Shown one piece after another: positions 1 through 11,310 of a DNA stretch of 11,411 nucleotides; positions within the stretch are counted from its first letter, which is position 1; each line of letters opens with the position of its first letter. The stretch lies in contig CAZQEL010000022.1 of NCBI GenBank assembly GCA_964591795.1, forward strand, positions 1 to 11,411, written 5' to 3'. The stretch comes from an uncultured archaeon. Lineage in GTDB: Archaea; Iainarchaeota; Iainarchaeia; Iainarchaeales; CSSED10-239. Both the position numbers and the translations under genes were made by a program. Under the pieces are notes generated by a model. The model was not told where the DNA came from and made no database searches. It saw nothing but the letters and a program-made list of their open reading frames with translations.

Positions 1-483
1 TTAAAAAGAGATTACAATACCCGTTTTTAGGGGTGATTGATTAATTTACTTAAAGTCCCACTATATATTTTTATAGAGCAGGGAATTAACAAAAAGAAAA
101 TCTCTAACCCTAATCAAAAAAATGGAAATACTCATCGTTATGTTTATTATCATTGCTCAAGAGGAAAAGACAGATTCTGTAAAGAGAAAGCTATAAGAGA
201 AGAAGAGTTACTTAAACAATTATTGGAAATGATTGATAAGATTGATCTTGATGAAATTACCACCCAAGATAAAATTAAAAGAAAAATAACTAAGTTTAGA
301 AAATTTAGTTATAGTGTGTTAGGGCAAGAAACCGAATTTGACAAAAGACCTATCGAAACAGATATCCGAAACTATGCAAAATACATCCTCACAGATGGCA
401 CCAAGGATGATAAGAGGGAACTACTGGGATGTTTGAGAAGTAGAGTAGAGATAAAAGATAAGGGAGTTAATTTAAATAAATGA
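1..483 (+). pseudogene. Decayed C-terminal remnant of a large serine recombinase (second half of the zinc-ribbon plus the coiled-coil region)
   Basis: ORF 37..483 contains 'HRYVYYHCSRGKDRFCKEKAIREEELLKQLLEMIDKIDLDE', which matches the YYxC...C half of the recombinase zinc ribbon followed by the coiled-coil. The upstream CxxC pair is missing ('LLKVPLYIFIEQG' sits where CGxCG is expected). The frame is closed by TAG 28-30 and TGA 34-36, and the only available start is TTG at 37. Frame 3 at 3..41 reads 'KKRLQYPFLGVID*', which resembles the conserved segment just before the zinc ribbon and suggests a frameshift. Confidence 0.55.
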
Positions 484-543: not shown

Positions 544-2289
544 ATGATAACCTATGAAGGCTTGATTTTATATTTACAACGCGATAGAATACTGATTAAT
601 ACTATGCGTAAAGATATAAAAGCAAAATTAAAAGATATGCCCGAACTACTTACTATTGGACAAGTAGCTGAAGTTTTTTCTATTCACCCTGATACTCTTA
701 GGAATTGGGATAAAGAAGGGATTTTAGTTCCTTTAAGGGTTGGAACAAGAAAAGACCGAAAATATAGACCTCAAGATATTCAAACCATTATGGATAAAAT
801 GGGTAGTGAACTTACACTTCCCCAACTAGAGCAATTCCTTTGGAAAAGTGCTGATATTCTTCGTGGGAAAATTGATGGTTCTGATTATAAGAAATATATT
901 TTCGGATTGTTATTCTTTAAAAGAATTAGTGATGTTTGGGATGAAGAATATAAAAAAACAAAAAAAGAATATGGGGATAAAAAAATCGCTCGTACTGACT
1001 ATAATCATCGCTTCCAAGTTCCTAGAGAATGTCGCTGGGCTGTTATAGAAGAACAAGCAGAAAATATCGGACAAAAACTTAATGAAATTTTTGATAAATT
1101 AACAAATGCTAATAGCCCAAAACTAGATAAAATTTTTAATGATTTAGATTTTGCTAATAAAGACCGTTTCCCCAACGAAACGACCCAACGATTAATAAAT
1201 CATTTTTCTCAATATAACTTTGGTGATACTTATATAAGTTCGGATTTGCTCGGAGATGCTTATGAATATCTAATTAAACAATTCGCTGCGGATGCTGGAA
1301 AAAAAGGTGGCGAATTCTACACACCACGAGAAGTTGAAAAAGTTATTGTTGAAATTTTAAAACCTCATAAAAAAGATCACATCTATGACCCTACTGTTGG
1401 ATCAGGAGGATTTCTCCTTGAGGCTTTTCATTATTTAAAAAATAAAGAAAATGAAACTGTGGCGAGAACACTTTATTTAAATGGGCAAGAGTTAAATATT
1501 GGAACTTTCGCAATTGCGAAAATAAATATGTTTTTGCATGGGTTAGACGGGGCTGATATTCAAAGAGGAGATACTTTAGCAAATCCACAATTCTTAAATC
1601 CAAATGGGAGTTTGAAAACTTTTGATATTGTTGTAGCAAATTTTCCATATTCTATTAAAGATTATGAATATAATATTCTAAAAATAAATAAATATGGAAG
1701 AATTGATGGATATGAAATGCCCCCTAAAAGAAATGCCGACTATGCTTTTATCTTACATATAATTAAATCAATGAATTCAAATGGAAGAGCAGGTGTAGTG
1801 GTTCCTCATGGAGTGCTTTTTAAAACTGATGCATCAAAAAGAATTCGAGAACAAATTTTAAAAAATGACTTAATTGAAGCTGTTATTGGTATGCCATCAA
1901 AATTATTTTATGGAGTTGGTATTCCTGTAGCGATTATTATTTTCAATAAAAATAAACCAAAAGAAAGAAAAAATAAAGTTTTGATTATTAATGCTGAAAA
2001 AGAATATTCAGAAGGTAAAAATCAAAACTCACTTCGTGTTCAAGATATCCAAAAGATTGTTAAAACTTATGATAATTATAAGGATGTAGAAAATTATGCT
2101 CGGGTGGTAGATTTAAAAGAAATTGAAGAGAATGAATTTAACTTGAATGTAAGTCGTTATATTGATAATGGAGAAAAAGAAGAAAAAATTGATGTTTCTG
2201 CTGTTAAGAAAGAATTGGTTAAACTAGAAAAAGAGCGAACAGAGATTGATAAAAAAGTCGAGGATTATTTAAAAGTATTAAAGTATTAA
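544..2289 (+). CDS. hsdM: Type I restriction-modification system methyltransferase subunit HsdM (N6-adenine) with an extra N-terminal MerR/excisionase-type HTH
   Basis: HsdM_N-like region 'LEQFLWKSADILRGKIDGSDYKKYIFGLLFFKRISDVWDEE'. 'GEFYTPREV' is present. The AdoMet motif I 'IYDPTVGSGGFL' lies at 1381..1416. The catalytic motif IV variant 'NFPY' lies at 1639..1650. 'YAFILHI' and 'GRAGVVVPHGVLF' are also present. The HTH 'LTIGQVAEVFSIHPDTLRNWDKEGILVPL...RKYRPQDIQTIM' spans about 640..800. Alternative starts are ATG 604 and ATG 637. Confidence 0.95.
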   Translation: MITYEGLILYLQRDRILINTMRKDIKAKLKDMPELLTIGQVAEVFSIHPDTLRNWDKEGILVPLRVGTRKDRKYRPQDIQTIMDKMGSELTLPQLEQFLWKSADILRGKIDGSDYKKYIFGLLFFKRISDVWDEEYKKTKKEYGDKKIARTDYNHRFQVPRECRWAVIEEQAENIGQKLNEIFDKLTNANSPKLDKIFNDLDFANKDRFPNETTQRLINHFSQYNFGDTYISSDLLGDAYEYLIKQFAADAGKKGGEFYTPREVEKVIVEILKPHKKDHIYDPTVGSGGFLLEAFHYLKNKENETVARTLYLNGQELNIGTFAIAKINMFLHGLDGADIQRGDTLANPQFLNPNGSLKTFDIVVANFPYSIKDYEYNILKINKYGRIDGYEMPPKRNADYAFILHIIKSMNSNGRAGVVVPHGVLFKTDASKRIREQILKNDLIEAVIGMPSKLFYGVGIPVAIIIFNKNKPKERKNKVLIINAEKEYSEGKNQNSLRVQDIQKIVKTYDNYKDVENYARVVDLKEIEENEFNLNVSRYIDNGEKEEKIDVSAVKKELVKLEKERTEIDKKVEDYLKVLKY

Positions 2290-2300
2290 AGTATTAAAGT
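2273..2300. repeat. Tandem octamer AAGTATTA, 3.5 copies, spanning the hsdM stop codon and the junction to the next gene
   Basis: Read directly: AAGTATTA at 2273-2280, 2281-2288 and 2289-2296, then AAGT at 2297-2300. The hsdM TAA is at 2287-2289 and the next ATG is at 2302. Confidence 0.9.
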
Positions 2301-2301
2301 T

Positions 2302-3009
2302 ATGAATAAATTATTTAAATTAAAAATAAATAAATCATCAGAATACTGGGCTTTTATGCTTTTGTTTTTTCTCAGTTTTTCCTGCCTATATTTTTTTAGT
2401 TTTAGACTAGATGATCCTTTTAGAACTGAGTTTTTGAATATTATTGAATATTTAGGGGCTATCTTAATTGCAATGGTTGCTGGGTATTTTGCTTACTCTC
2501 AATTTTTAGAAATACGTTTTGAAAAAATAAAAGAACAAGCTAACCTTAGTTTTAAAAGAGATATGTACGCTAGAGCGATAAATTTATATACAGAAGCTAT
2601 TTCCATCAGATCCGATGAGTTTCCTGTTTTTGCTGAATATACGGAAGTTTTGATTGCAATTTCTGATTTTGATAAATTTGATTTGATAGCTAAAGATTTA
2701 AAAAAATATGCAGTTGATAAAAGAGAACATTTGATTTGTTGCTACTTGATGTTTTCTAGGTTCATGTTGCAAGAAAATCTTGGTTTTGCTAAAAAACATA
2801 TACTTGAAACAATAGAATCTTATGAAAAAAATAAAAATATTTTTGTATTAGGTAATTGGGATTTTTCTGATATAAAAAGGACAGAAAATTATAAGTCTCT
2901 TCAAGGAGAAGCAAAAAAGATTTTTGATAATTATATAAAATTTGTAACAGGACAGTTGAAGAATGATTCGTTAAGTAAGTTTTTGAATGGCGATTACATT
3001 TTAAGTTAA
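2302..3009 (+). CDS. Hypothetical membrane protein with two N-terminal TM helices and a cytoplasmic TPR-like helical domain
   Basis: Hydrophobic segments are 'YWAFMLLFFLSFSCLYFFSF' (about 2344..2403) and 'IIEYLGAILIAMVAGYFAYSQF' (about 2440..2505). 'FKRDMYARAINLYTEAISIRSDEF' fits the TPR consensus pattern (Y..AI..Y..AI). It is a long ORF with no stops that fills the gap exactly, 12 nt after hsdM. Confidence 0.75.
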   Translation: MNKLFKLKINKSSEYWAFMLLFFLSFSCLYFFSFRLDDPFRTEFLNIIEYLGAILIAMVAGYFAYSQFLEIRFEKIKEQANLSFKRDMYARAINLYTEAISIRSDEFPVFAEYTEVLIAISDFDKFDLIAKDLKKYAVDKREHLICCYLMFSRFMLQENLGFAKKHILETIESYEKNKNIFVLGNWDFSDIKRTENYKSLQGEAKKIFDNYIKFVTGQLKNDSLSKFLNGDYILS

Positions 3010-3016
3010 TTTAAAA

Positions 3017-3307
3017 ATGAAAAATCAAGAATATTACAACAAAATATTTAATGAATACAAAGAATTAGAAGCTAAAACTTTTATTCCTGTTAATGATGTT
3101 GTTAAGGGTAAAAAAATAATAGGTGTTCATATTAAACCCGAAGATCTCTTTCGTCGAGATGAAGTTAGAGAAGAATTAAGAAAGGGTTTAAATTTTCTTT
3201 CTAATGAACAATTAGAATTTTTGTATGACGATAGTGATTCTTTATTGGTTTTAGAAGCGGTAAAAACTTTGGCTAATAGAGATTTAATAAATAACAATAT
3301 TAACTAA
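3017..3307 (+). CDS. Hypothetical small protein (96 aa), family not recognised
   Basis: The ORF starts 7 nt after the upstream stop and ends 1 nt before the next ATG, so it fits the operon packing. I recognise no motifs. Residue counts are about 18 acidic and 15 basic. Confidence 0.6.
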   Translation: MKNQEYYNKIFNEYKELEAKTFIPVNDVVKGKKIIGVHIKPEDLFRRDEVREELRKGLNFLSNEQLEFLYDDSDSLLVLEAVKTLANRDLINNNIN

Positions 3308-3308
3308 T

Positions 3309-4379
3309 ATGCCAACACTTTCAACAAGGTCAACTTCTAGAGAAACAATGGAAATGGATCCCATTGTATTAAGAGAAACAACTACAACTAGATTGACTTT
3401 TTATCCATGTTGGGTTAGTTCATCAAGTAACCCATTGAGAGGAGGTTTTAAATTTGAAAGAAAAAGCCCATTAGATACTTGGGAAGCTTTTGATTCTAAA
3501 CCGCTATCTAGTTTAAAAAAAGACGAAGCATATATTTTACCTTTAAAAGGCGACGAAATATCTTCTCTCTTGTTTAATTTAGAAAATATTAAAGAAATTC
3601 TTGAAAAGTACGGACATTCTTATGGTGAAAGAAATATTATTTTTAGTGAAAAAAATGCAGAAAATGTTTTATTACAAATAGGTGAAATAGATAATCGAGA
3701 TTTAGTTATTCAACAATTAAAAAAATTAGAAGAAAATAATTTTAAGAATATAAGTTCTCTCGTTGACATAACAAAATTAGACAAAATTATTGAAGAATTT
3801 GAGAAAAACTTAAATAATTCAGATGAAAGTTTCTGGCAAAACTTTTTTGAAGACAAAGATGGTGTTTGGGTTTTACAACAAATTTTTTCATTTCCTGTTC
3901 TTTTTTTGCAAGGAGAGGCATATGTTGGCGGAAAAAATACTAAAGGGCGTCAAGGAAGAGGCGGTGTTGCCACAGATTATTTATTTAAAAATCATTCAAA
4001 TGATAGTTTTGCTGTTGTAGAAATAAAAACTCCAAAAACCAAGTTAGTAAAAAATTATTTGTATAGAGGTGATTTTGAAGGAGAAACCAATTGTATCCAT
4101 GAATTAGAAAAAGATTTGTATGGAGGCGTTATTCAATTAGAAAATCAAATACATACAGCGATAGACAAATTTAAAGATGAATTAGGGGAAGATTTTAAGG
4201 AATTAAACATGATTGATCCTTGTGGCGTGTTATTAATTGGTAATAAAGAAGATTTAAATATTAGTCAGAAAAAAACTTTTAATTTGTTTAGAAAAACATT
4301 GGGGAAAAATTTAATTTATACCTTTGATGAACTTTTATTTAAAATTAAGCAATTTCGAACATTTTATAATGAAAACTAA
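3309..4379 (+). CDS. Shedu-like (SduA / DUF4263) PD-(D/E)xK nuclease-domain protein with an unrecognised N-terminal domain
   Basis: The C-terminal half reads 'ESFWQNFFEDKDGVWVLQQIF...GVATDYLF...FAVVEIKTPKTKL...GGVIQLENQIH...PCGVLLIGNKEDL...NLIYTFDELL'. The candidate catalytic residues are D (3975-3977) and ExK (E 4020-4022, K 4026-4028), followed by Q. A terminal 'iiG...TYDELL'-type motif is as I recall for DUF4263. The first 170 aa or so are unassigned. Alternative starts are ATG 3348 and ATG 3354. Confidence 0.7.
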   Translation: MPTLSTRSTSRETMEMDPIVLRETTTTRLTFYPCWVSSSSNPLRGGFKFERKSPLDTWEAFDSKPLSSLKKDEAYILPLKGDEISSLLFNLENIKEILEKYGHSYGERNIIFSEKNAENVLLQIGEIDNRDLVIQQLKKLEENNFKNISSLVDITKLDKIIEEFEKNLNNSDESFWQNFFEDKDGVWVLQQIFSFPVLFLQGEAYVGGKNTKGRQGRGGVATDYLFKNHSNDSFAVVEIKTPKTKLVKNYLYRGDFEGETNCIHELEKDLYGGVIQLENQIHTAIDKFKDELGEDFKELNMIDPCGVLLIGNKEDLNISQKKTFNLFRKTLGKNLIYTFDELLFKIKQFRTFYNEN

Positions 4380-5529
4380 CCAAATACAAAAGAATATTCC
4401 AAAAGGTTGGGGAGAAAAACAATTTAATGATTGTATTGTTTTACCTACAAAACTTAAAGGACTTAAAAAATCACAATATAAATTAAGTGGTAAATATCCT
4501 ATTTTCGATCAAGGTCAAAGCTACATAAGTGGATATACAGATAATAATGATTTTTTGAATGATAATTCTCCAGTAATATTGTTTGGGGATCACACAAGAA
4601 TTGTTAAATTAATAAAATCACCCTTTGTTTTAGGAGCTGATGGTACTAAAGTTTTTTGGGTAAACGAGAATATTGATATTGATTTCTTTTTTTATTCTTT
4701 ATTAAATACCGAAATACCGAACACTGGCTACAATAGACATTTTAAATTTCTAAAGGAGAAAAAGTTTTTAATTCCAGAAGATATAAACGAACAAAAACAA
4801 ATTGCGAAAATTTTGAAAACAGTTGATAAAGAAATGGAAAAAACTGACGAGATTATAGGGGGAACGGAAAAGTTGAAAAAAGGTTTGATGCAAAAACTTT
4901 TTGAGAAAAAAGAGGGGTGGAATGTATTGAAAATAAAAGATTCTCCGATTAAACTAATTGATGGCGATCGAGGTGTAAATTATCCGAAAGTCAGTGACTT
5001 TACTACTGGTGGTTATTGTCTTTTTCTGAGTAATAAGAATATAAAAAATGATGAATTTATTTTTTCAGATTCACAATTTATTTCTAAAGAAAAAGATGAG
5101 TTATTAAGAAAAGGAAGGCTTCAAAAAGAAGATGTTATTTTAACAACAAGAGGAACTGTTGGAAGTGTGGCTTTTTATGATAAAACCGTAAGTTTTCAGA
5201 ATATAAGAATAAATTCAGGGATGCTTATTTTAAGATCGTTTGACGGAATAGAACCTATATATTTATATCAATTATTGAAAAGTTCTTTATTAAAAAACAA
5301 ATTTAAGGAGATCGTTTCAGGATCTGCCCAACCCCAGCTCCCGATAAGAACACTTGAACAAGTTTTTATACCAATACCACCAGAAGGTGAGCAACAAAAA
5401 ATTGCAGAAATTCTTTCGGCTGTCGATGAAAAAATTTTAGTTAATAAAAAATTAAAAGAAAAACTAACCCAACTCAAAAAAGGTCTGTCGCAAGATCTTT
5501 TGAGTGGTAAAGTACGAACAAAAAAATGA
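4369..5529 (+). CDS. hsdS: Type I restriction-modification system specificity subunit HsdS (two target-recognition domains)
   Basis: The N-terminus 'MKTNQIQKNIPKGWGEKQFNDC' is typical for HsdS. TRD1 contains 'GKYPIFDQGQSYISGYTD...ILFGDHT'. TRD2 contains 'LIDGDRGVNYP...ILTTRGTVGSVAFYD'. There are two conserved helical spacers: 'EQKQIAKILKTVDKEMEKTDEIIGGTEKLKKGLMQKLF' from 4789 and 'EQQKIAEILSAVDEKILVNKKLKEKLTQLKKGLSQDLLSG' from 5389. I prefer ATG 4369 to the track start TTG 4324, because codons 4324-4368 overlap the previous gene and add a non-HsdS-like leader. Confidence 0.9.
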   Translation: MKTNQIQKNIPKGWGEKQFNDCIVLPTKLKGLKKSQYKLSGKYPIFDQGQSYISGYTDNNDFLNDNSPVILFGDHTRIVKLIKSPFVLGADGTKVFWVNENIDIDFFFYSLLNTEIPNTGYNRHFKFLKEKKFLIPEDINEQKQIAKILKTVDKEMEKTDEIIGGTEKLKKGLMQKLFEKKEGWNVLKIKDSPIKLIDGDRGVNYPKVSDFTTGGYCLFLSNKNIKNDEFIFSDSQFISKEKDELLRKGRLQKEDVILTTRGTVGSVAFYDKTVSFQNIRINSGMLILRSFDGIEPIYLYQLLKSSLLKNKFKEIVSGSAQPQLPIRTLEQVFIPIPPEGEQQKIAEILSAVDEKILVNKKLKEKLTQLKKGLSQDLLSGKVRTKK

Positions 5530-6986
5530 ATAATATATATATAAAATCAATGCCAGTCAATATGTTTAATGGGATTTTTAACATCACCGTTACTTTTGAT
5601 AATGGATTAAATATAATAAGTGGGGTAAATGGTACTGGAAAGACACAAATATTAAGGTTGCTTAAAGAGAATAAAGGGATTACTTCTACTGCAGAAAAAT
5701 CATCAGACCAACTTTCTATTTTTGCCATTAGTCCAAAAAGAAATACAGAGAAAGAAGCAATCGATAGTATCTTTCAACAAGTTCGAACACAAAACAAAAC
5801 AATCAAAACTTTTTTTGGGCAAATTAAGGGATTTCAAATTAAAGATTCTGGTTTTGAAAATTATCCATCCTTTGCAGAATTATTTATACAGGAATATGAT
5901 TCTTTAATGCAGGATGGTGTAACTGGTCATAAACTAGCAATAGAGAAAACTTCTGAAAGTTTCAATGAAGTTCTATCAAAAGTATTTCCTGAATACAAAA
6001 TTAAAGCCACATGGGTTTTAGGCGAAACTGATCTTTCTGGGAAGTTAGATTTAAAAATCAGTAAGTATTCAACAGAACCCATATCAATAGAATATCTCAG
6101 TACAGGAGAACGCGAAATGTTTGCCCTTCTGTTTGCTATCTTTGTGAGTAGGCACGAAGAAGATATTTATTTAATAGATGAGCCAGAAATTCACCTAAAT
6201 TGGGATTTAGAAAAAGGACTTTTCCAATTCTTTGATTGGTTTGGTACTAAATTTGAAAAACAAATAATTATTGTGACGCACTCCAGGATTATTTTTAAGA
6301 AAGAGTTTTATCCTAGAACCCAATTTTTAGTTTGGAAAAATAATCAGATAATTAGCCGTTCTGAAATAACTGATAAGCAAAAAGAATCAATAGCGGGTGA
6401 ATTGTCTGACTCGATTAGCATTTCAGATTTTTCTAAGACAACCTATTTTGTAGAGGATGAAACTCAAAAATTAATTATTAATTTTTTGGCAGAAAAATTT
6501 AATAAAACCGTATCTATAGTTGTTTGTGGCAATAAGTCAAACGTTAAATCAATGTACTCTTTATTATTAAAGGAACAAAGTGATCTTCTATATTTTTTGG
6601 TTGACGGAGACAATGAAGGAAATGGGATCGTAGATCCAAACTTTATTAGCTTAGGTAAATATTGCATAGAGAATTATTTATTAAATATATCAATATTATC
6701 GTCACTTCTTTCTAAAACCGAAGATCAAATAAAAATAATGCTAGTTGATTGTTTGAAAAAAATAAGCTCAAATAAACATTTTTTGGTTTATAAAAAACTT
6801 GCGGAAAATAGTAGCGACTTTCCTCTTGATGTTTTAGACACCTATAGCGGTAAGGATCTGTTAAAATGCTTTGCTTCTGATCTCAATAAAACAGTTCCGG
6901 AATTAACGAAAGAAATTCTTGAAAAGATTGCTCTAGAAGATAAGCTCGATGGAATTTTTTCAGAGATAATTCCCGGAATAAAATAA
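5526..6986 (+). CDS. Single-polypeptide fusion of an ABC/SMC-type ATPase and a TOPRIM (DUF4435-like) domain; a PARIS AriA-AriB-like or OLD-family candidate nuclease
   Basis: Walker A 'GVNGTGKT' lies at 5622..5645. The ABC signature-like 'LSTGEREMF' starts at 6096. Walker B 'IYLIDEPEIHL' has DE at 6177..6182. 'IIIVTHS' fits an H-loop. The C-terminal half has 'YFVEDETQ' (E at 6453-6455), 'VVCGNKSNV', 'FLVDGDNEG' (DxD at 6603..6611) and 'CIENYLL' (6663..6680). Together these fit the TOPRIM Glu plus DxD arrangement and the ENY motif I associate with DUF4435. Its ATG overlaps the hsdS stop (ATGA at 5526-5529). Confidence 0.75.
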   Translation: MNNIYIKSMPVNMFNGIFNITVTFDNGLNIISGVNGTGKTQILRLLKENKGITSTAEKSSDQLSIFAISPKRNTEKEAIDSIFQQVRTQNKTIKTFFGQIKGFQIKDSGFENYPSFAELFIQEYDSLMQDGVTGHKLAIEKTSESFNEVLSKVFPEYKIKATWVLGETDLSGKLDLKISKYSTEPISIEYLSTGEREMFALLFAIFVSRHEEDIYLIDEPEIHLNWDLEKGLFQFFDWFGTKFEKQIIIVTHSRIIFKKEFYPRTQFLVWKNNQIISRSEITDKQKESIAGELSDSISISDFSKTTYFVEDETQKLIINFLAEKFNKTVSIVVCGNKSNVKSMYSLLLKEQSDLLYFLVDGDNEGNGIVDPNFISLGKYCIENYLLNISILSSLLSKTEDQIKIMLVDCLKKISSNKHFLVYKKLAENSSDFPLDVLDTYSGKDLLKCFASDLNKTVPELTKEILEKIALEDKLDGIFSEIIPGIK

Positions 6987-6987
6987 T

Positions 6988-9894
6988 ATGAAATTCAACG
7001 AACAATACACAATAGAAAATTACATCATTAAGTTCTTAGGAAAAGAGCTTGATTATGAATACATAAAACCGAAGGATTTTGCAAAACTGCGGGAATTTGA
7101 GAATGAATATATTATTTCTTCTCTTTTACTTAATGCTATAAAAAAGATAAATAACATTTCTGATGACGAAGCAAAATCTATTTTAAGAGAAGTTAGGAAA
7201 ATAGATAATAATGAAGATTTTCTTAAAACTTTCCGTAATGGAATTAATCTTAAAGATTCCGAAACTGGAAAAATGAGAGATTATTTTATTATTGATTTCG
7301 ACAATCTTGGAAACAACCATTTTGTTATAACTAACCAATTTTATTTTGAAGGTAATTCTGAAAATATAAGAACGGATGTTTTGGTTTTTTTAAATGGTTT
7401 ACCTGTTGTAAATATTGAAGCTAAAAGTCCTACTGTCTCAAGTAGTGTAAATTATGCGAATGCTGTTGGGCAGATCAAAAGATATGAAAGAAACGCTTTT
7501 AAACTTTTCTGGCCAAATTGTTTTAATATTGCTACAGACGGATTGGAAACAGTTTATGGAGCAACCTATTCTCCTGCTCAGTATTTCTTAAAATGGAAAG
7601 AGGAAGAATTAAATGAGAAGTATGAAGAAGAACTTGAAATAACTTTATATGCTTTGCTATCGCGAGAGAGATTATTAGATATTATCAGAAATTTTATTCT
7701 TTTTGACAAAGATAAAGAACAAACCATAAAAAAAATTGCTCGTTATCAACAATTAAGAGCTACTAATAAAATCGTAGAGAGAGTTAGAAAAGGAGAAGAT
7801 AAGAGAGGTCTTATTTGGCATACTCAAGGATCAGGGAAATCACTGACTATGTTTTTTACTGCATGGAAATTACGATTTAATAAAAACTTAAAAAATCCAA
7901 AGATATTTATTTTGGTTGATAGAATTGATTTAGATGATCAAATTTATGAAACTTTTGTAAATTGTGGAGGTAAGAATGTTGTTCGGGTTAATTCTCGTCG
8001 TGATTTGGAGAAAAAAATAAAATCTTCAGAAAGAGGTATTTTTATCTCAACTATTCAAAAGTTTTCAGAATTAGGAAATGATGTTAAAAATCTTGATGAA
8101 AATATAATTGTGCTTTCTGATGAAGCTCACCGTGACAATGAAGGAATTTCAGCAATCAATTTAAGAAGCTCAATGGAAAATGCTTTTTTCTTTGGATTTA
8201 CAGGAACCCCTATTGATAGAACTACTTTAAATACTCATAGAAATTTTGGAGCTGAGGGAGAAAGATATCTTGATTACTATTCAATCAAACAAGCTATTGA
8301 TGATGGAACTACTCTTCCTGTTACATATGAAGCAAGATTATCTAAATTCTTTATTGATGAAGAAAAACTTGATAAACAGTTTGAAGAAATGACTGAAGGA
8401 CTTTCTGAAAAAGAAAAAGAGCAAATATCTAAAAAATACGGGAGAAAAGAAGCAATCGTAAAGCTTGATAAACGAATGGAAGCAATTGCTCAAGATATTA
8501 CTGAACATTATAAGTTATATGTTGAACCTGCTGGATTTAAGGCTCAGATTGTTTGTTATGATAGAGAGGCTACAGCTAAGTATAAGGAACTTTTAGATCA
8601 ACTTGTGTCAAAAGATTGGTCGGCTGTTATTTATTCTGCAGGTGATCCAAATACAAGTCCTGAAGAATTACAAAAATATAATACCACTAAAGCAAAAAGG
8701 GAAAAATTAATTAATGACTTTAAAGATCCAAATAGTCCTTTAAGGTTCTTATTGGTGTGCGATATGTTATTAACTGGTTTTGATGCTCCTATTGAACAGG
8801 TGATGTATTTAGATAAGCCTCTTTGGGATCATAATCTTTTACAAGCTATCGCTAGAACTAACAGAATCTATCCAAACAAAGGAGCTGGGAAAATTATTGA
8901 TTATTACGGAATAACTAAAAGTTTACATAAAGCTTTAGATTTTGATGAAAGTGAAGTTGATTCTGCAATGATTAATATAGATAAACTTAAAGAAGAATTC
9001 AAAGATATTCTATATGAAATTATGGGTATTTTTGTCAATGTAAATATTGAAGACCCTTCAATTGAGAATCTTCGTCGCTGTTTGAAAATATTTGCTGAAA
9101 ATAACGAAAAGCAAAAATTCTTTAGTAATAAATATGGACGACTAAAACTTTTATTTGAAGTCTTGTCTCCTGATCCTTTCCTTAAAGAATTTGTAAGAAA
9201 ATTTGAATGGTTAACTAGTGTTTATATTGCTTTCAGTAAAGAGTTTGGTGAAAGTGCTTATAGTTCAGAAGTCTTGGCTGAATATGGTGAGAAAGTTAAA
9301 AACTTAATTCAACAAAGAGTTGATTATGAAGGAATTACAAAAAATTTCAGAGAATTAAATATAAATGATTTGTATGTGATGGAAAGATTAAACAAAATGG
9401 ATGATGAAGAGAAAGCTTTGAATCTTGAAAAGATGCTTAAACAAGAAATTTCTTTAAATGTTGATACAAATCCTGCTTATAAAAAATTTAGTGAAAGATT
9501 ATCAGCAATCAGAAGAGAATTCGAGAAGAATCAAATTGATTTATCTGAAAGAATTAAACGGTATCAAGAATTACTTGAAGATATAAAAAATAAAGGTGAC
9601 GAAGCTAAAGAACTTGGATATTCATTAAAAGAATATGGTCTTTATGTAATTTCAGAAGAATTTATTAAAGGAGATAAAGATTTAATAAGAGATTTTATTC
9701 AAGAGATGTCTAAAAGAATTGAAAATGTACTTGATGCTGGGTGGCAAGAATCTTCTAAAAGAGATGAATTCTTGAAAGAAGTTAAGAGAATTATTCAAGA
9801 ATTAATATTAAAAGAATATAAAGAAAAAATAGAGGTTTCTGATTTCCATAAATATCTAAATCGTTTAGTGGATATTGTAATAAAAAAATTCTAA
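6988..9894 (+). CDS. hsdR: Type I restriction enzyme endonuclease/translocase subunit HsdR
   Basis: The N-terminal PD-(D/E)xK is 'RTDVLVFLNGLPVVNIEAKSP' (D 7375-7377, E 7417-7419, K 7423-7425). SF2 helicase motif I is 'HTQGSGKSLTM' (GK at 7834-7839). Motif II is 'DEAH' at 8119..8130. Motif III is 'GFTGTP'. Motif VI is 'QAIARTNR'. 'LLVCDMLLTGFDAP' is present. The C-terminal helical region 'LFEVLSPDPFL' is typical of the HsdR C-terminal domain. Confidence 0.95.
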   Translation: MKFNEQYTIENYIIKFLGKELDYEYIKPKDFAKLREFENEYIISSLLLNAIKKINNISDDEAKSILREVRKIDNNEDFLKTFRNGINLKDSETGKMRDYFIIDFDNLGNNHFVITNQFYFEGNSENIRTDVLVFLNGLPVVNIEAKSPTVSSSVNYANAVGQIKRYERNAFKLFWPNCFNIATDGLETVYGATYSPAQYFLKWKEEELNEKYEEELEITLYALLSRERLLDIIRNFILFDKDKEQTIKKIARYQQLRATNKIVERVRKGEDKRGLIWHTQGSGKSLTMFFTAWKLRFNKNLKNPKIFILVDRIDLDDQIYETFVNCGGKNVVRVNSRRDLEKKIKSSERGIFISTIQKFSELGNDVKNLDENIIVLSDEAHRDNEGISAINLRSSMENAFFFGFTGTPIDRTTLNTHRNFGAEGERYLDYYSIKQAIDDGTTLPVTYEARLSKFFIDEEKLDKQFEEMTEGLSEKEKEQISKKYGRKEAIVKLDKRMEAIAQDITEHYKLYVEPAGFKAQIVCYDREATAKYKELLDQLVSKDWSAVIYSAGDPNTSPEELQKYNTTKAKREKLINDFKDPNSPLRFLLVCDMLLTGFDAPIEQVMYLDKPLWDHNLLQAIARTNRIYPNKGAGKIIDYYGITKSLHKALDFDESEVDSAMINIDKLKEEFKDILYEIMGIFVNVNIEDPSIENLRRCLKIFAENNEKQKFFSNKYGRLKLLFEVLSPDPFLKEFVRKFEWLTSVYIAFSKEFGESAYSSEVLAEYGEKVKNLIQQRVDYEGITKNFRELNINDLYVMERLNKMDDEEKALNLEKMLKQEISLNVDTNPAYKKFSERLSAIRREFEKNQIDLSERIKRYQELLEDIKNKGDEAKELGYSLKEYGLYVISEEFIKGDKDLIRDFIQEMSKRIENVLDAGWQESSKRDEFLKEVKRIIQELILKEYKEKIEVSDFHKYLNRLVDIVIKKF

Positions 9895-9896
9895 TA

Positions 9897-10469
9897 ATGA
9901 AAAAAGATATTACTTTAAAAGATAAAAAAATCTCATACACCCTTAAAAAGAGCAAAAGGGCTCGAAGAATGAGGTTGGCGGTTTATTGTGATGGAAGTAT
10001 TGTTGTAACTACACCTCTTGGTTTAAGAGGAAATATTGTAGAAAAGTTTTTAACTGAAAAAACTCAATGGTTATTTGCTAAATTAAATTTTTTTAAACAA
10101 TTTGATGGAAAAGCAATTACAAAGTATAGCCATGAAGACTATTTGAAATTTAAAAAAGAAGCTTATATTTTGGCTGAAAAAAGAATTACTTATTTCAATA
10201 AAATATATAAATTAAAATACAACAAAATAAGTATCAAAAATCAAAAGACTCGTTGGGGTAGTTGCTCAAAAAAAGGTAATTTAAATTTTAATTATAAAAT
10301 AGCTCTTTTACCTCAAAAAATTTCTGATTACATTATTGTTCACGAACTATGTCATCTAAAAGAATTTAATCATTCAAGAAAATTCTGGAATCTAGTTGCT
10401 CAAGTGATGCCTGATTATTTAGAAATAAGAAAAGAACTTAAACAAAGTGGTTATCAATTTTATAAATAG
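9897..10469 (+). CDS. DUF45/YgjP-type (M48/SprT-like) zinc metallopeptidase-fold protein, coupled to hsdR
   Basis: 'TRWGSCSKKGNLNFNYKIALLPQKISDYIIVHELCHLKEFNHSRKFW' carries the HExxH motif 'HELCH' at 10341..10355 and a downstream 'NHS..FW'. This matches the YgjP/DUF45 signature as I remember it. The gene starts 2 nt after the hsdR stop. Confidence 0.85.
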   Translation: MKKDITLKDKKISYTLKKSKRARRMRLAVYCDGSIVVTTPLGLRGNIVEKFLTEKTQWLFAKLNFFKQFDGKAITKYSHEDYLKFKKEAYILAEKRITYFNKIYKLKYNKISIKNQKTRWGSCSKKGNLNFNYKIALLPQKISDYIIVHELCHLKEFNHSRKFWNLVAQVMPDYLEIRKELKQSGYQFYK

Positions 10470-10659: not shown

Positions 10660-11310
10660 ATGGGTAAAGATGAAGTTAATAAAATAATAAAGCAAAAAAT
10701 AAACTCTACTATTGGAAATATTGGAAATGGTGTTTTGTATGATTTGTGTCAAAAATATCCATTACACGATAATCCAGATGTTATAAATGCAAAAATATGG
10801 CTTATCGGTAGAGCATATGCTGCAGCTATTGAGAGAAGAAAAAAATATCTTAATGATTTAAATGATGATTTTTACGAAAAACGAGTAATTCCAATGATTA
10901 TGAAATCAAGTATTGATCAAAGGATAGATAAAATTAGAGAATATAAATCAATCACAAAAGAAAATATTTTAAATATATTGAAAGTTCACAAATTTTTATC
11001 CGATTTGTTTTGTGATATTTCAGGACTTAAAAAAAGATCATTAGCATCAAAGTATTTGCATTTTCATTTTCCAGATTTATTTTTTATATATGATTCAAGA
11101 GCAAAAAATGCTCTGTCTAAAATTTCTGATAAATTATCATTAGAATATAAAAAGATTATTGACAGTAAAAAAGTGGATAAAAAATATGCGACATTTTTTT
11201 GTAAATCATATGAAAAAAAGAATGAATTTGAAGATATCCAGCCAGATATCTCTACTAGACAATTTGATTCAATATTAATAGTAATAGCTAATCAAGAACT
11301 AAGAAAATAA
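10660..11310 (+). CDS. Hypothetical protein (216 aa), family not confidently recognised
   Basis: This is a clean 216-codon ORF after a 190-nt gap. Its conserved-looking segments are 'AKIWLIGRAYAAAIERR' and 'LASKYLHFHFPDLFFIYDSRA'. The second resembles an 'SK-x-LHF..P..xPIxDS' motif that I vaguely associate with uncharacterised OGG-fold-annotated proteins. That association is unverified. Confidence 0.6.
   Translation: MGKDEVNKIIKQKINSTIGNIGNGVLYDLCQKYPLHDNPDVINAKIWLIGRAYAAAIERRKKYLNDLNDDFYEKRVIPMIMKSSIDQRIDKIREYKSITKENILNILKVHKFLSDLFCDISGLKKRSLASKYLHFHFPDLFFIYDSRAKNALSKISDKLSLEYKKIIDSKKVDKKYATFFCKSYEKKNEFEDIQPDISTRQFDSILIVIANQELRK

Follow-up and report, generated by a model that had tools for sequence, protein, structure and literature searches.

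The locus and the gene between hsdS and hsdR

The stretch of DNA considered here, 11,411 nucleotides of contig CAZQEL010000022.1 (assembly GCA_964591795.1) from an uncultured archaeon of the Iainarchaeota and referred to below as the window, carries a type I restriction-modification (R-M) operon with an additional gene between hsdS and hsdR. This gene, the target of the analysis, spans 5526..6986 on the + strand, stop codon included, and encodes a single chain of 486 amino acids (aa) in which an AriA-like ATPase is followed by an AriB-like TOPRIM nuclease. It is preceded by hsdS (4324..5529, +; Methylase_S, 8.5e-29, in two stretches), which contains two target-recognition domains and whose start codon is uncertain, being either TTG at 4324 or ATG at 4369, and it is followed by hsdR (6988..9894, +), with HSDR_N, SWI2_SNF2, ResIII, T1R_D3-like and T1RH-like_C domains. 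The window holds ten open reading frames (ORFs), every one on the + strand, and nine of the ten are tightly packed in an operon-like block at 544-10469.

The ATG of the target gene (5526-5528) overlaps the TGA stop codon of hsdS (5527-5529) as ATGA, its own TAA stop codon lies at 6984-6986, and the ATG of hsdR begins one base further, at 6988. The reading frame and both junctions described in a first-pass annotation of the sequence were confirmed by these coordinates, and the gene does occupy the hsdS-hsdR slot, as PrrC does in its own locus. The public gene call, P0001 (478 aa), begins eight codons downstream, at the second in-frame ATG (M9); the longer start at 5526, and with it the ATGA overlap, is favoured because the N-termini of the homologues are conserved (MNNxYIKS). 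Equally tight packing was found around the corresponding gene, or cassette, in the loci L006 (again with an ATGA overlap), L164, L168 and L012. Since the target gene is co-transcribed and probably translationally coupled with the hsd genes, its product would be made whenever the restriction genes are expressed.

Conservation was assessed in an alignment of 43 homologues of 33-67% identity. Residues K39, S192, G194, E197, D218, E219, H252, E310, D311, D360, D362 and N363 are invariant, and the IENY element is at least 90% conserved. Such conservation of motifs is far beyond chance, and the catalytic residues of both domains, judged from the aligned sequences, are intact and under strong constraint. 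The Walker A, signature-like, Walker B and H-loop motifs, as well as the VEDE, CGNK, VDGDNEG and IENYLL elements, all lie where the first reading of the sequence had placed them.

The ATPase half

The N-terminal domain (aa 1-285; 5526..6380, +) belongs to the ATP-binding cassette (ABC) ATPases of the AriA/OLD-ABC type, as indicated by matches of the N-terminal half to Pfam AAA_21 (2.3e-10) and AAA_15 (6.3e-10), together with PADLOC AriA and PDB matches. It contains a Walker A motif, GVNGTGKT, at aa 33-40 (5622..5645, +), in which G33, N35 and G36 are invariant along with K39 and the latter aligns with K39 of AriA; a signature-like motif, LSTGERE, at aa 191-197 (6096..6116, +), with invariant S192, G194 and E197; a Walker B motif, IYLIDEPE, at aa 214-221 (6165..6188, +), with D218 and E219, of which E219 corresponds to E393 of AriA; and an H-loop, VTHS, at aa 250-253 (6273..6284, +), where S253 and the adjoining R254 are invariant like H252.

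The whole chain matches the PADLOC model of fused AriAB at 9.2e-31 (105 bits), the match being limited to profile positions 260-539 of 694, and that of AriA at 2.6e-19. When the family profile was compared with all PDB sequences, the top match was AriA of E. coli (8ux9_B, 3.8e-15). In the alignment of the target with AriA, aa 5-48 correspond one-to-one to AriA 5-48 and aa 120-248 to AriA 302-426, whereas the insert between the two blocks comprises about 70 residues in the target and about 250 in AriA. This reduced helical insert (aa 49-135; 5670..5930, +) stands at the place of the four-helix coiled-coil of AriA, and in the AlphaFold2 (AF2) model it consists of just four short helices.

The full-length AF2 model, with a mean predicted local distance difference test score (pLDDT) of 86.7, matched the folds of OLD, AriA, GajA and the heads of SMC and Rad50, the top match being the Thermus OLD nuclease (6p74); such a set is as expected for the ATPase clade to which the modelled head would belong. 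In NCBIfam only sub-threshold ABC-type matches were obtained for the target, none of them on the C-terminal half, and in PHROGs only unannotated ATPase families were matched.

The TOPRIM half

The two halves are joined by a flexible linker of 18 residues (aa 286-303; 6381..6434, +), which is variable in sequence and falls below a pLDDT of 50 at positions 292-300. The TOPRIM core follows (aa 304-386; 6435..6683, +) and is assigned to the AriB/DUF4435 type on the basis of DUF4435, PADLOC AriB and Foldseek matches and of the invariant acidic residues. Within it lie VEDE (E310, E312), CGNK (334-337), VDGDNEG (359-365, with D360 and D362) and IENYLL (381-386). The chain ends in an all-helical domain (aa 387-486; 6684..6983, +), which is the most variable segment and is shorter by about 65 aa than its counterpart in the 695-aa class of fused AriAB proteins discussed below.

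Scanned alone against PADLOC, the C-terminal half matched AriAB (1.4e-10), AriB (5.3e-7) and, weakly, HEC-01B, with no other models; against Pfam it matched DUF4435 at 3.2e-5, and a precomputed DUF4435 match (PF14491) is present on many homologues of the target. A search with its single sequence against PDB sequences gave nothing meaningful. The AF2 model of aa 296-486 is confident (pLDDT 92.6), and in a Foldseek comparison of the C-terminal domain with the PDB two AriB chains, 8v46_D (7.4e-5) and 8ux9_A (3.8e-4), were the only matches below 1e-3; a search of the same model against a viral fold library gave no significant match. Since the N-terminal half matches AriA and the C-terminal half AriB/DUF4435, the target is, by its sequence and predicted fold, a fusion of an AriA-like ABC ATPase with an AriB/DUF4435-type TOPRIM, that is, a single-chain protein of the PARIS type. 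The ABC-ATPase/TOPRIM fusion proposed in the first-pass annotation is thereby upheld, and the DUF4435 and AriB matches provide the similarity of the C-terminal half on which that proposal had been made to depend.

A different role has to be weighed at this point, namely that of an OLD-like ATP-dependent DNA nuclease which would help restriction by degrading the ends or nicks left by the neighbouring restriction enzyme, without killing the cell. The top full-length fold match to Thermus OLD, with GajA also ranking high, is in keeping with such a helper, the OLD nucleases of class 1 being exonucleases encoded by a single gene and degrading DNA in the 5' to 3' direction (PMC10568477), and the linkage of the family to R-M systems of types I, II, IIG and III, described below, would suit a factor acting on cleaved DNA better than a sensor for inhibitors of one enzyme class. 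The C-terminal domain taken alone, however, matches AriB, a tRNA nuclease, and OLD or GajA TOPRIM chains are absent from its fold matches at E <1e-3; Pfam OLD-like_TOPRIM (PF20469) reaches only 0.033 on this half (15.2 bits, with a cut-off of 23.2), and many members of the family have no R-M partner at all. The helper role is considered quite unlikely.

A compact family

The homologues of the target vary little in length, from 483 to 505 aa. When 1.84 billion cluster representatives were searched exhaustively with a profile, only 139 clusters (50% identity) were obtained at E <=1e-30, of which about 75 were full-length, and most of the family occurs in uncultivated lineages; a tblastn search of plasmid and phage collections gave no compact-family match at 1e-8. 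The next relatives retrieved from genomes were the classical fused AriAB proteins (PADLOC PDLC02981; the 'merge' types of DefenseFinder), with a median length of about 695 aa, which likewise consist of one polypeptide with an ABC ATPase followed by a DUF4435/AriB TOPRIM. Both classes have LSxGE, DEPExHLN, THS, the TOPRIM Glu, DxD and IENYLL in common, and an hhalign comparison of the compact family with 26 members of the 695-aa class gave a probability of 99.9% (E 2.2e-31).

The aligned core is nevertheless confined to aa 136-413 of the target, whose identity with the 695-aa proteins is just 23-28%, and the target, being of 486 aa and matching in the core only, has neither the length nor the full architecture of that class. 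The compact proteins are shorter by about 210 residues, of which about 130 are missing from the ATPase insert and the N-terminal half, while the helical domain at the C-terminus accounts for about 65. The earlier suggestion that the protein might be a minimal variant is therefore borne out by a tight family of about 485 aa, the classical fused AriAB proteins measuring about 695 aa, and the family is a distinct and rare compact clade. Within it the mean pairwise identity amounts to 34% in the insert (aa 49-135) and 29% in the C-terminal domain (aa 387-486), as against 50-53% in the catalytic lobes; this variability of the insert and of the helical domain is as expected of recognition surfaces, to which these sequences would then correspond.

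Three shorter relatives of about 290 aa (P0222, P0224 and P0232) were also observed. They match the family profile at E about 1e-44 with the same TOPRIM and helical module, and the ATPase is replaced by a zinc-ribbon-like N-terminus of about 90 aa with four cysteines (CGKCG...CPRC); they represent a different sensor on the same effector. In locus L173 the gene of such a relative (5001-5891) stands alone among housekeeping genes, with no ATPase gene nearby.

Genomic context and the link to restriction

The neighbourhood was surveyed in 31 compact-family loci with readable neighbours, the window included, and in 14 of them the gene lies inside or directly beside an R-M operon. The arrangement hsdS, cassette, hsdR recurs in six type I loci (the window, L006, L081, L164, L168 and L012); in L011 the cassette is found between an AntA-domain gene that follows hsdM and the hsdS gene, and in L167 and L172 it comes directly after hsdR, so that type I systems account for nine of the 31. 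The remaining cases comprise IIG-like operons, with the cassette between a gene fusing HSDR_N_2, N6_Mtase and Eco57I domains and the specificity subunit (L004, L088), type III operons, with the cassette between Mod and Res (L086, L169), and a type II operon in which it follows C5 methylase, R.HinP1I and Vsr genes with a 4-nt overlap (L084). The R-M-linked cases thus fall into at least six unrelated operon types and four kinds of R-M system (I, IIG-like, II and III).

As a control, the genes immediately adjoining 62 loci of the 695-aa class were scanned for methyltransferase domains. A methyltransferase was an immediate neighbour in 2/62 and a phage integrase in six; in a further locus of this class, L046, a type I operon lies 1 kb off. 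The comparison of 14/31 with 2/62 gives a Fisher odds ratio of 24.7 (p = 1.4e-6), a statistic that ignores shared ancestry and a control that covers immediate neighbours only. The enrichment of homologues in R-M loci that had been anticipated was accordingly found. The repeated presence of the compact gene in or beside four kinds of R-M operon suggests, as far as gene order can tell, a back-up role for restriction.

The first-pass annotation had gone further and proposed that the protein monitors the integrity of the surrounding type I enzyme. In a PrrC-like form of this proposal it would be a latent guardian, bound and silenced by the HsdMSR complex, dependent on it for its latency and fired only when a phage inhibitor disables that complex. 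The gene does lie in exactly the PrrC slot with translational coupling to both hsdS and hsdR, the same arrangement recurs in six loci, among them type I systems whose hsdR shares only 25-32% identity (L012, L168), and PrrC also has an ABC-type ATPase head (10.1101/2024.01.29.577857). Three close homologues of 61-63% identity (L161, L163, L165), however, have no R-M gene within 5-8 kb, and others lie in type III, IIG-like and type II operons, which have no subunit in common with type I enzymes, or after hsdR rather than before it.

The cassette has moreover been exchanged independently of the hsd genes. Thus L006 shares 70% identity with the window in hsdM and 69% in hsdR, with only 42% in the cassette, whereas L168 shares 51% in the cassette, with 25% in hsdR and 28% in hsdM; in L167 a cassette of 62% identity is positioned after an hsdR of 29% identity, not before it. 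The cassette appears from these identities to move independently of the R-M genes. With close homologues standing alone and a cassette phylogeny that does not follow that of the R-M genes, the protein is unlikely to depend on the type I enzyme as PrrC does; PrrC occurs nearly always inside type I systems (10.1101/2024.01.29.577857), which is not the case for the compact family, and the C-terminal domain of the target is a TOPRIM and not a nuclease of the PrrC type. This part of the earlier proposal was not sustained, and the latent-guardian role is regarded as very unlikely.

It could be objected that the cassette is an autonomous passenger in a recombination hotspot, with nothing in common with restriction but a promoter. 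DarTG2 is among the other cargo received by the hsdS-hsdR slot, which is known as a hotspot (PMC12255303), numerous unrelated systems have been documented inside type I R-M loci (10.1101/2024.01.29.577857), and the operon of the window contains a second, unrelated insertion (Shedu with two ORFs) that is absent in L006 and replaced in L164. On the other side, R-M adjacency is found in 2/62 loci of the 695-aa sister class as compared with 14/31 in the compact family, and the internal positions in R-M operons of four types, with overlapping or nearly abutting codons, exceed what generic clustering on islands would produce. A role as passenger only is unlikely.

The standalone close relatives occur in varied surroundings. 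In L161 (62% identity) the gene adjoins a large serine recombinase and ParAB, in L163 (61%) it lies among purine-synthesis and NUDIX genes, and in L165 and L166 (63%) it adjoins a serine recombinase and a helicase-nuclease gene. Full-length large serine recombinases adjoin the cassette in L015 and L170 as well as in L161 and L165, and in L171 one lies 3.4 kb downstream, which suggests that serine-recombinase elements carry the cassette or, in the window, the whole island. A partner gene conserved at standalone loci was sought and rejected, the downstream neighbours in L002 and L003 being non-homologous and the neighbours varying from locus to locus.

The helicase-nuclease gene encodes a protein of 1127 aa, in which AAA_11/AAA_12 helicase domains are joined to an MTES_1575/DUF559 (Vsr-like) nuclease, and it is a conserved downstream neighbour of the 63%-identity homologue on two contigs (3584-6967 in L082/L166; 5929-9312 in L165); it probably represents a further defence gene of that island. 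A small gene of 68-69 aa with a helix-turn-helix (HTH) of the XRE type lies directly upstream of standalone cassettes in L162 (1306-1515) and L166 (1518-1724), and in L169 such a gene (2230-2436) is found upstream of the type III gene Mod, which in turn lies before the cassette. These small genes may encode a dedicated repressor.

Other genes of the island

The window begins with a serine recombinase fragment at 37-483 (+), recognised by Pfam as Zn_ribbon_recom of a large serine recombinase. The hsdM gene (544..2289, +; N6_Mtase 9e-106, HsdM_N) encodes at its N-terminus a DNA-binding domain of the MerR/HTH_17 type (MerR_1 3.4e-9, aa 37-82), and the same fusion occurs in the related HsdM of L164; through this domain the operon may be autoregulated.

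Between hsdM and hsdS a second insertion (2302-4379) is observed in the hsd operon, consisting of an ORF of 235 aa with apparent hydrophobic helices (2302-3009, +), an ORF of 96 aa (3017-3307, +) and a complete Shedu SduA gene (3309-4379, +; PADLOC 8.5e-69). Elsewhere this junction is occupied by a Bro-N gene and an ORF of 188 aa (L164) or by an AntA-domain gene (L011), and in L006 the two hsd genes are adjacent; since its contents differ among these loci, the hsdM-hsdS junction is a second variable cargo slot.

A YgjP-like metallopeptidase gene of the WLM/SprT type (9897-10469, +) starts 2 nt after hsdR; such a gene is also found 3' of hsdR in L006 and L172 and near hsdR in L046. Past a gap of 190 nt, an ORF of 216 aa (10660-11310, +) forms the end of the island. 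The ORFs of 235, 96 and 216 aa gave no match in Pfam, PADLOC, NCBIfam (E <=0.1 in the case of the 235-aa ORF) or PHROGs. Neither the Rfam nor the tRNA scan of the window gave a match, and a scan for promoters and terminators gave the same counts as shuffled sequence and is hence uninformative on internal signals.

Comparison with known systems

PARIS is a textbook defence system that senses phage anti-restriction proteins (Ocr, Stp, Ptr1/2), cleaves tRNA-Lys and needs a hexameric coiled-coil scaffold as well as the release of a separate nuclease. Its mechanism has been described (PMC11464382, PMC10802264), and fused AriAB forms are known and are counted as PARIS by its authors (PMC9122126; also PMC11464382). 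The system of E. coli B185, with AriA of 464 aa and AriB of 306 aa (PDB 8ux9, 8v45-8v49), is the best solved-structure match for both halves of the target, and the order of the acidic TOPRIM residues in the target follows that of AriB (E26, D88/E90, E122; PMC11464382). The total length is 486 aa in the target and 770 aa in the two-gene PARIS. In E. coli AriB is separate and releasable, whereas in the target the nuclease is fused through its linker of 18 residues and is not, and the ratio of TOPRIM to ATPase is 1:1 instead of 1:2 (six AriA to three AriB). The coiled-coil insert of AriA forms the interface on which the hexamer is assembled and into which Ocr wedges (PMC10802264), and pore residues in the insert region affect the binding of both Ocr and AriB (PMC11464382).

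HEC-04, a single-chain ABC-TOPRIM protein embedded in Hma, is a validated defence protein that needs its Walker A and TOPRIM residues (10.1101/2024.01.29.577857). Its essential residues K62, E319 and D375/D377 are spaced similarly to K39, E310 and D360/D362 of the target; its TOPRIM, however, was compared with that of OLD, while that of the target resembles AriB, and its host system is Hma and not an R-M system. The HEC-04 model was absent from the top 25 of the 70 PADLOC matches for the full target and from the matches of the C-terminal half.

PrrC of E. coli (prr, the EcoprrI locus) is, like the target, embedded in a type I hsd operon by hsdS and hsdR, and its combination of an ABC-type NTPase head, an effector directed against RNA and a back-up role for restriction parallels the model proposed here; its effector is an anticodon nuclease domain and not a TOPRIM. 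Unlike PrrC, the compact family also occurs outside type I loci, often as a standalone gene, and nothing indicates a latency imposed by an R-M enzyme. Membership in the PrrC family was rejected, the C-terminal half being TOPRIM/DUF4435, with no PrrC model among the PADLOC matches and no Pfam match of the AAA_13/PrrC type.

RloAB, found in type I loci of Campylobacter, is a pair of ABC ATPase and TOPRIM that has been called PARIS-like within R-M (PMC10802264), and AbiL (AbiLi/AbiLii) is also composed of an ABC ATPase and a TOPRIM-type nuclease; both resemble the target in these domains but are encoded by two genes and have a TOPRIM of the RloB type. Membership in RloAB/AbiL was rejected, as no Pfam RloB match was obtained on the C-terminal half at E up to 10 and AbiLi matched the ATPase half only (3.9e-11).

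The OLD nucleases of class 1 (P2 Old, Thermus OLD 6p74) and class 2 (GajA) share with the target the single-chain combination of ABC ATPase and TOPRIM and differ from it in the TOPRIM subtype. Class 1 is defined by context, and standalone members of the compact family would fit that definition (PMC10568477); membership of the target in class 1 was rejected, its TOPRIM being of the AriB/DUF4435 subtype. Gabija was rejected as well, because the window contains no helicase other than hsdR and thus no GajB, and the GajA models reached 8e-13 at best on the target as against 9e-31 for AriAB in PADLOC. A catalogue of OLD-ABC/TOPRIM modules lying within BREX systems has been published (PMC12839542).

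In locus L007 a UvrD-like helicase gene (665 aa, 428-2425) lies 160 nt upstream of a family member (2585-4045) on the same strand. This pairing resembles Gabija, with the opposite gene order and with a TOPRIM that is AriB-like rather than GajA-like.

Proposed mode of action

The domain identities, the catalytic residues, the reduced insert, the embedding in operons, the linkage to four kinds of R-M system and the independence from any single enzyme are the observations from which a model may be drawn; the defence function, the trigger, the substrate and the geometry of activation are what the model would add to them. According to the explanation considered the most probable, the target is an autonomous abortive-infection nuclease of the PARIS type, carried on a horizontally mobile one-gene cassette and co-expressed with restriction as its back-up. 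The AriA-like ABC ATPase would act as sensor and gate and the AriB-like two-metal TOPRIM nuclease, tethered by the linker, as effector. At rest the ATP-bound ATPase heads would keep the TOPRIM domains apart or occluded; a signal derived from the phage, most plausibly a protein used by phages against restriction, would shift the state of the ATPase and allow the two tethered TOPRIM domains to pair into an active dimer. This dimer would then cut a nucleic acid, by analogy with AriB possibly host tRNA (PMC11464382, PMC12409363), so that translation would stop and the infection be aborted. It may be hypothesised that proteins of the Ocr/ArdA type are sensed, although the coiled-coil on which Ocr docks in AriA is largely absent here.

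Several points weigh against this explanation. The Pfam DUF4435 match on the target reaches 24.2 bits, below the curated cut-off of 27; the C-terminal domain compares with the AriB fold at a template modelling (TM) score of 0.43, though with a significant E-value; and the family profile reached AriA but failed to reach E. coli AriB by sequence, so that the AriB assignment rests on PADLOC, Pfam and the fold comparison. No R-M neighbour was found in 17/31 loci, and the restriction link of the family is hence not obligatory, while the enrichment figure is subject to the shared ancestry and the narrow control already mentioned. Finally, the sensing mode of PARIS is not simply transferable to the target, because the coiled-coil that docks Ocr and builds the hexamer is mostly absent, and a tethered TOPRIM is not releasable as AriB is, so that the stoichiometry would be 2:2 and not six AriA to three AriB.

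These differences from PARIS lead to a further reading, in which the compact family would be a portable 'restriction guardian' for any class of R-M system, detecting the failure or evasion of restriction by a route other than that of PARIS or PrrC. What the pared-down ATPase head and the variable helical domain at the C-terminus would recognise is a signal shared by restriction systems of every kind, for instance a DNA-mimic protein in the DNA-binding groove or unrestricted incoming DNA, whereupon the tethered TOPRIM domains would be activated in cis as a pair, with neither the Ocr trap of the AriA coiled-coil nor masking by an R-M enzyme. Such a guardian is possible, though doubtful.

Significance

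The concept of PARIS-like modules within restriction loci is already known, since fused AriAB, RloAB, the OLD-ABC/TOPRIM modules in BREX, HEC-04 and the idea that anti-restriction proteins trigger embedded PARIS or Gabija (10.1101/2024.01.29.577857) have all been published, and an existing PADLOC model already matches the target. In the papers searched no description was found of the compact clade, of its loss of most of the sensor scaffold, of its marked preference for R-M operons of several types or of its distribution in mostly uncultivated lineages.

With the scaffold mostly lost and the nuclease tied to the sensor, the family, if defensive, must be switched on differently from PARIS, and it would offer a minimal system in which the gating of a TOPRIM nuclease by an ABC ATPase could be studied. 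The R-M linkage of the compact class, and not of the larger one, provides comparative evidence for the idea, published but untested, that selection favours PARIS-like modules as back-ups of restriction, and the target is a small one-gene construct on which this idea can be tested. The family is found chiefly in uncultivated lineages, among them the Patescibacteria, which are probably under-sampled by isolate-based surveys of defence systems.

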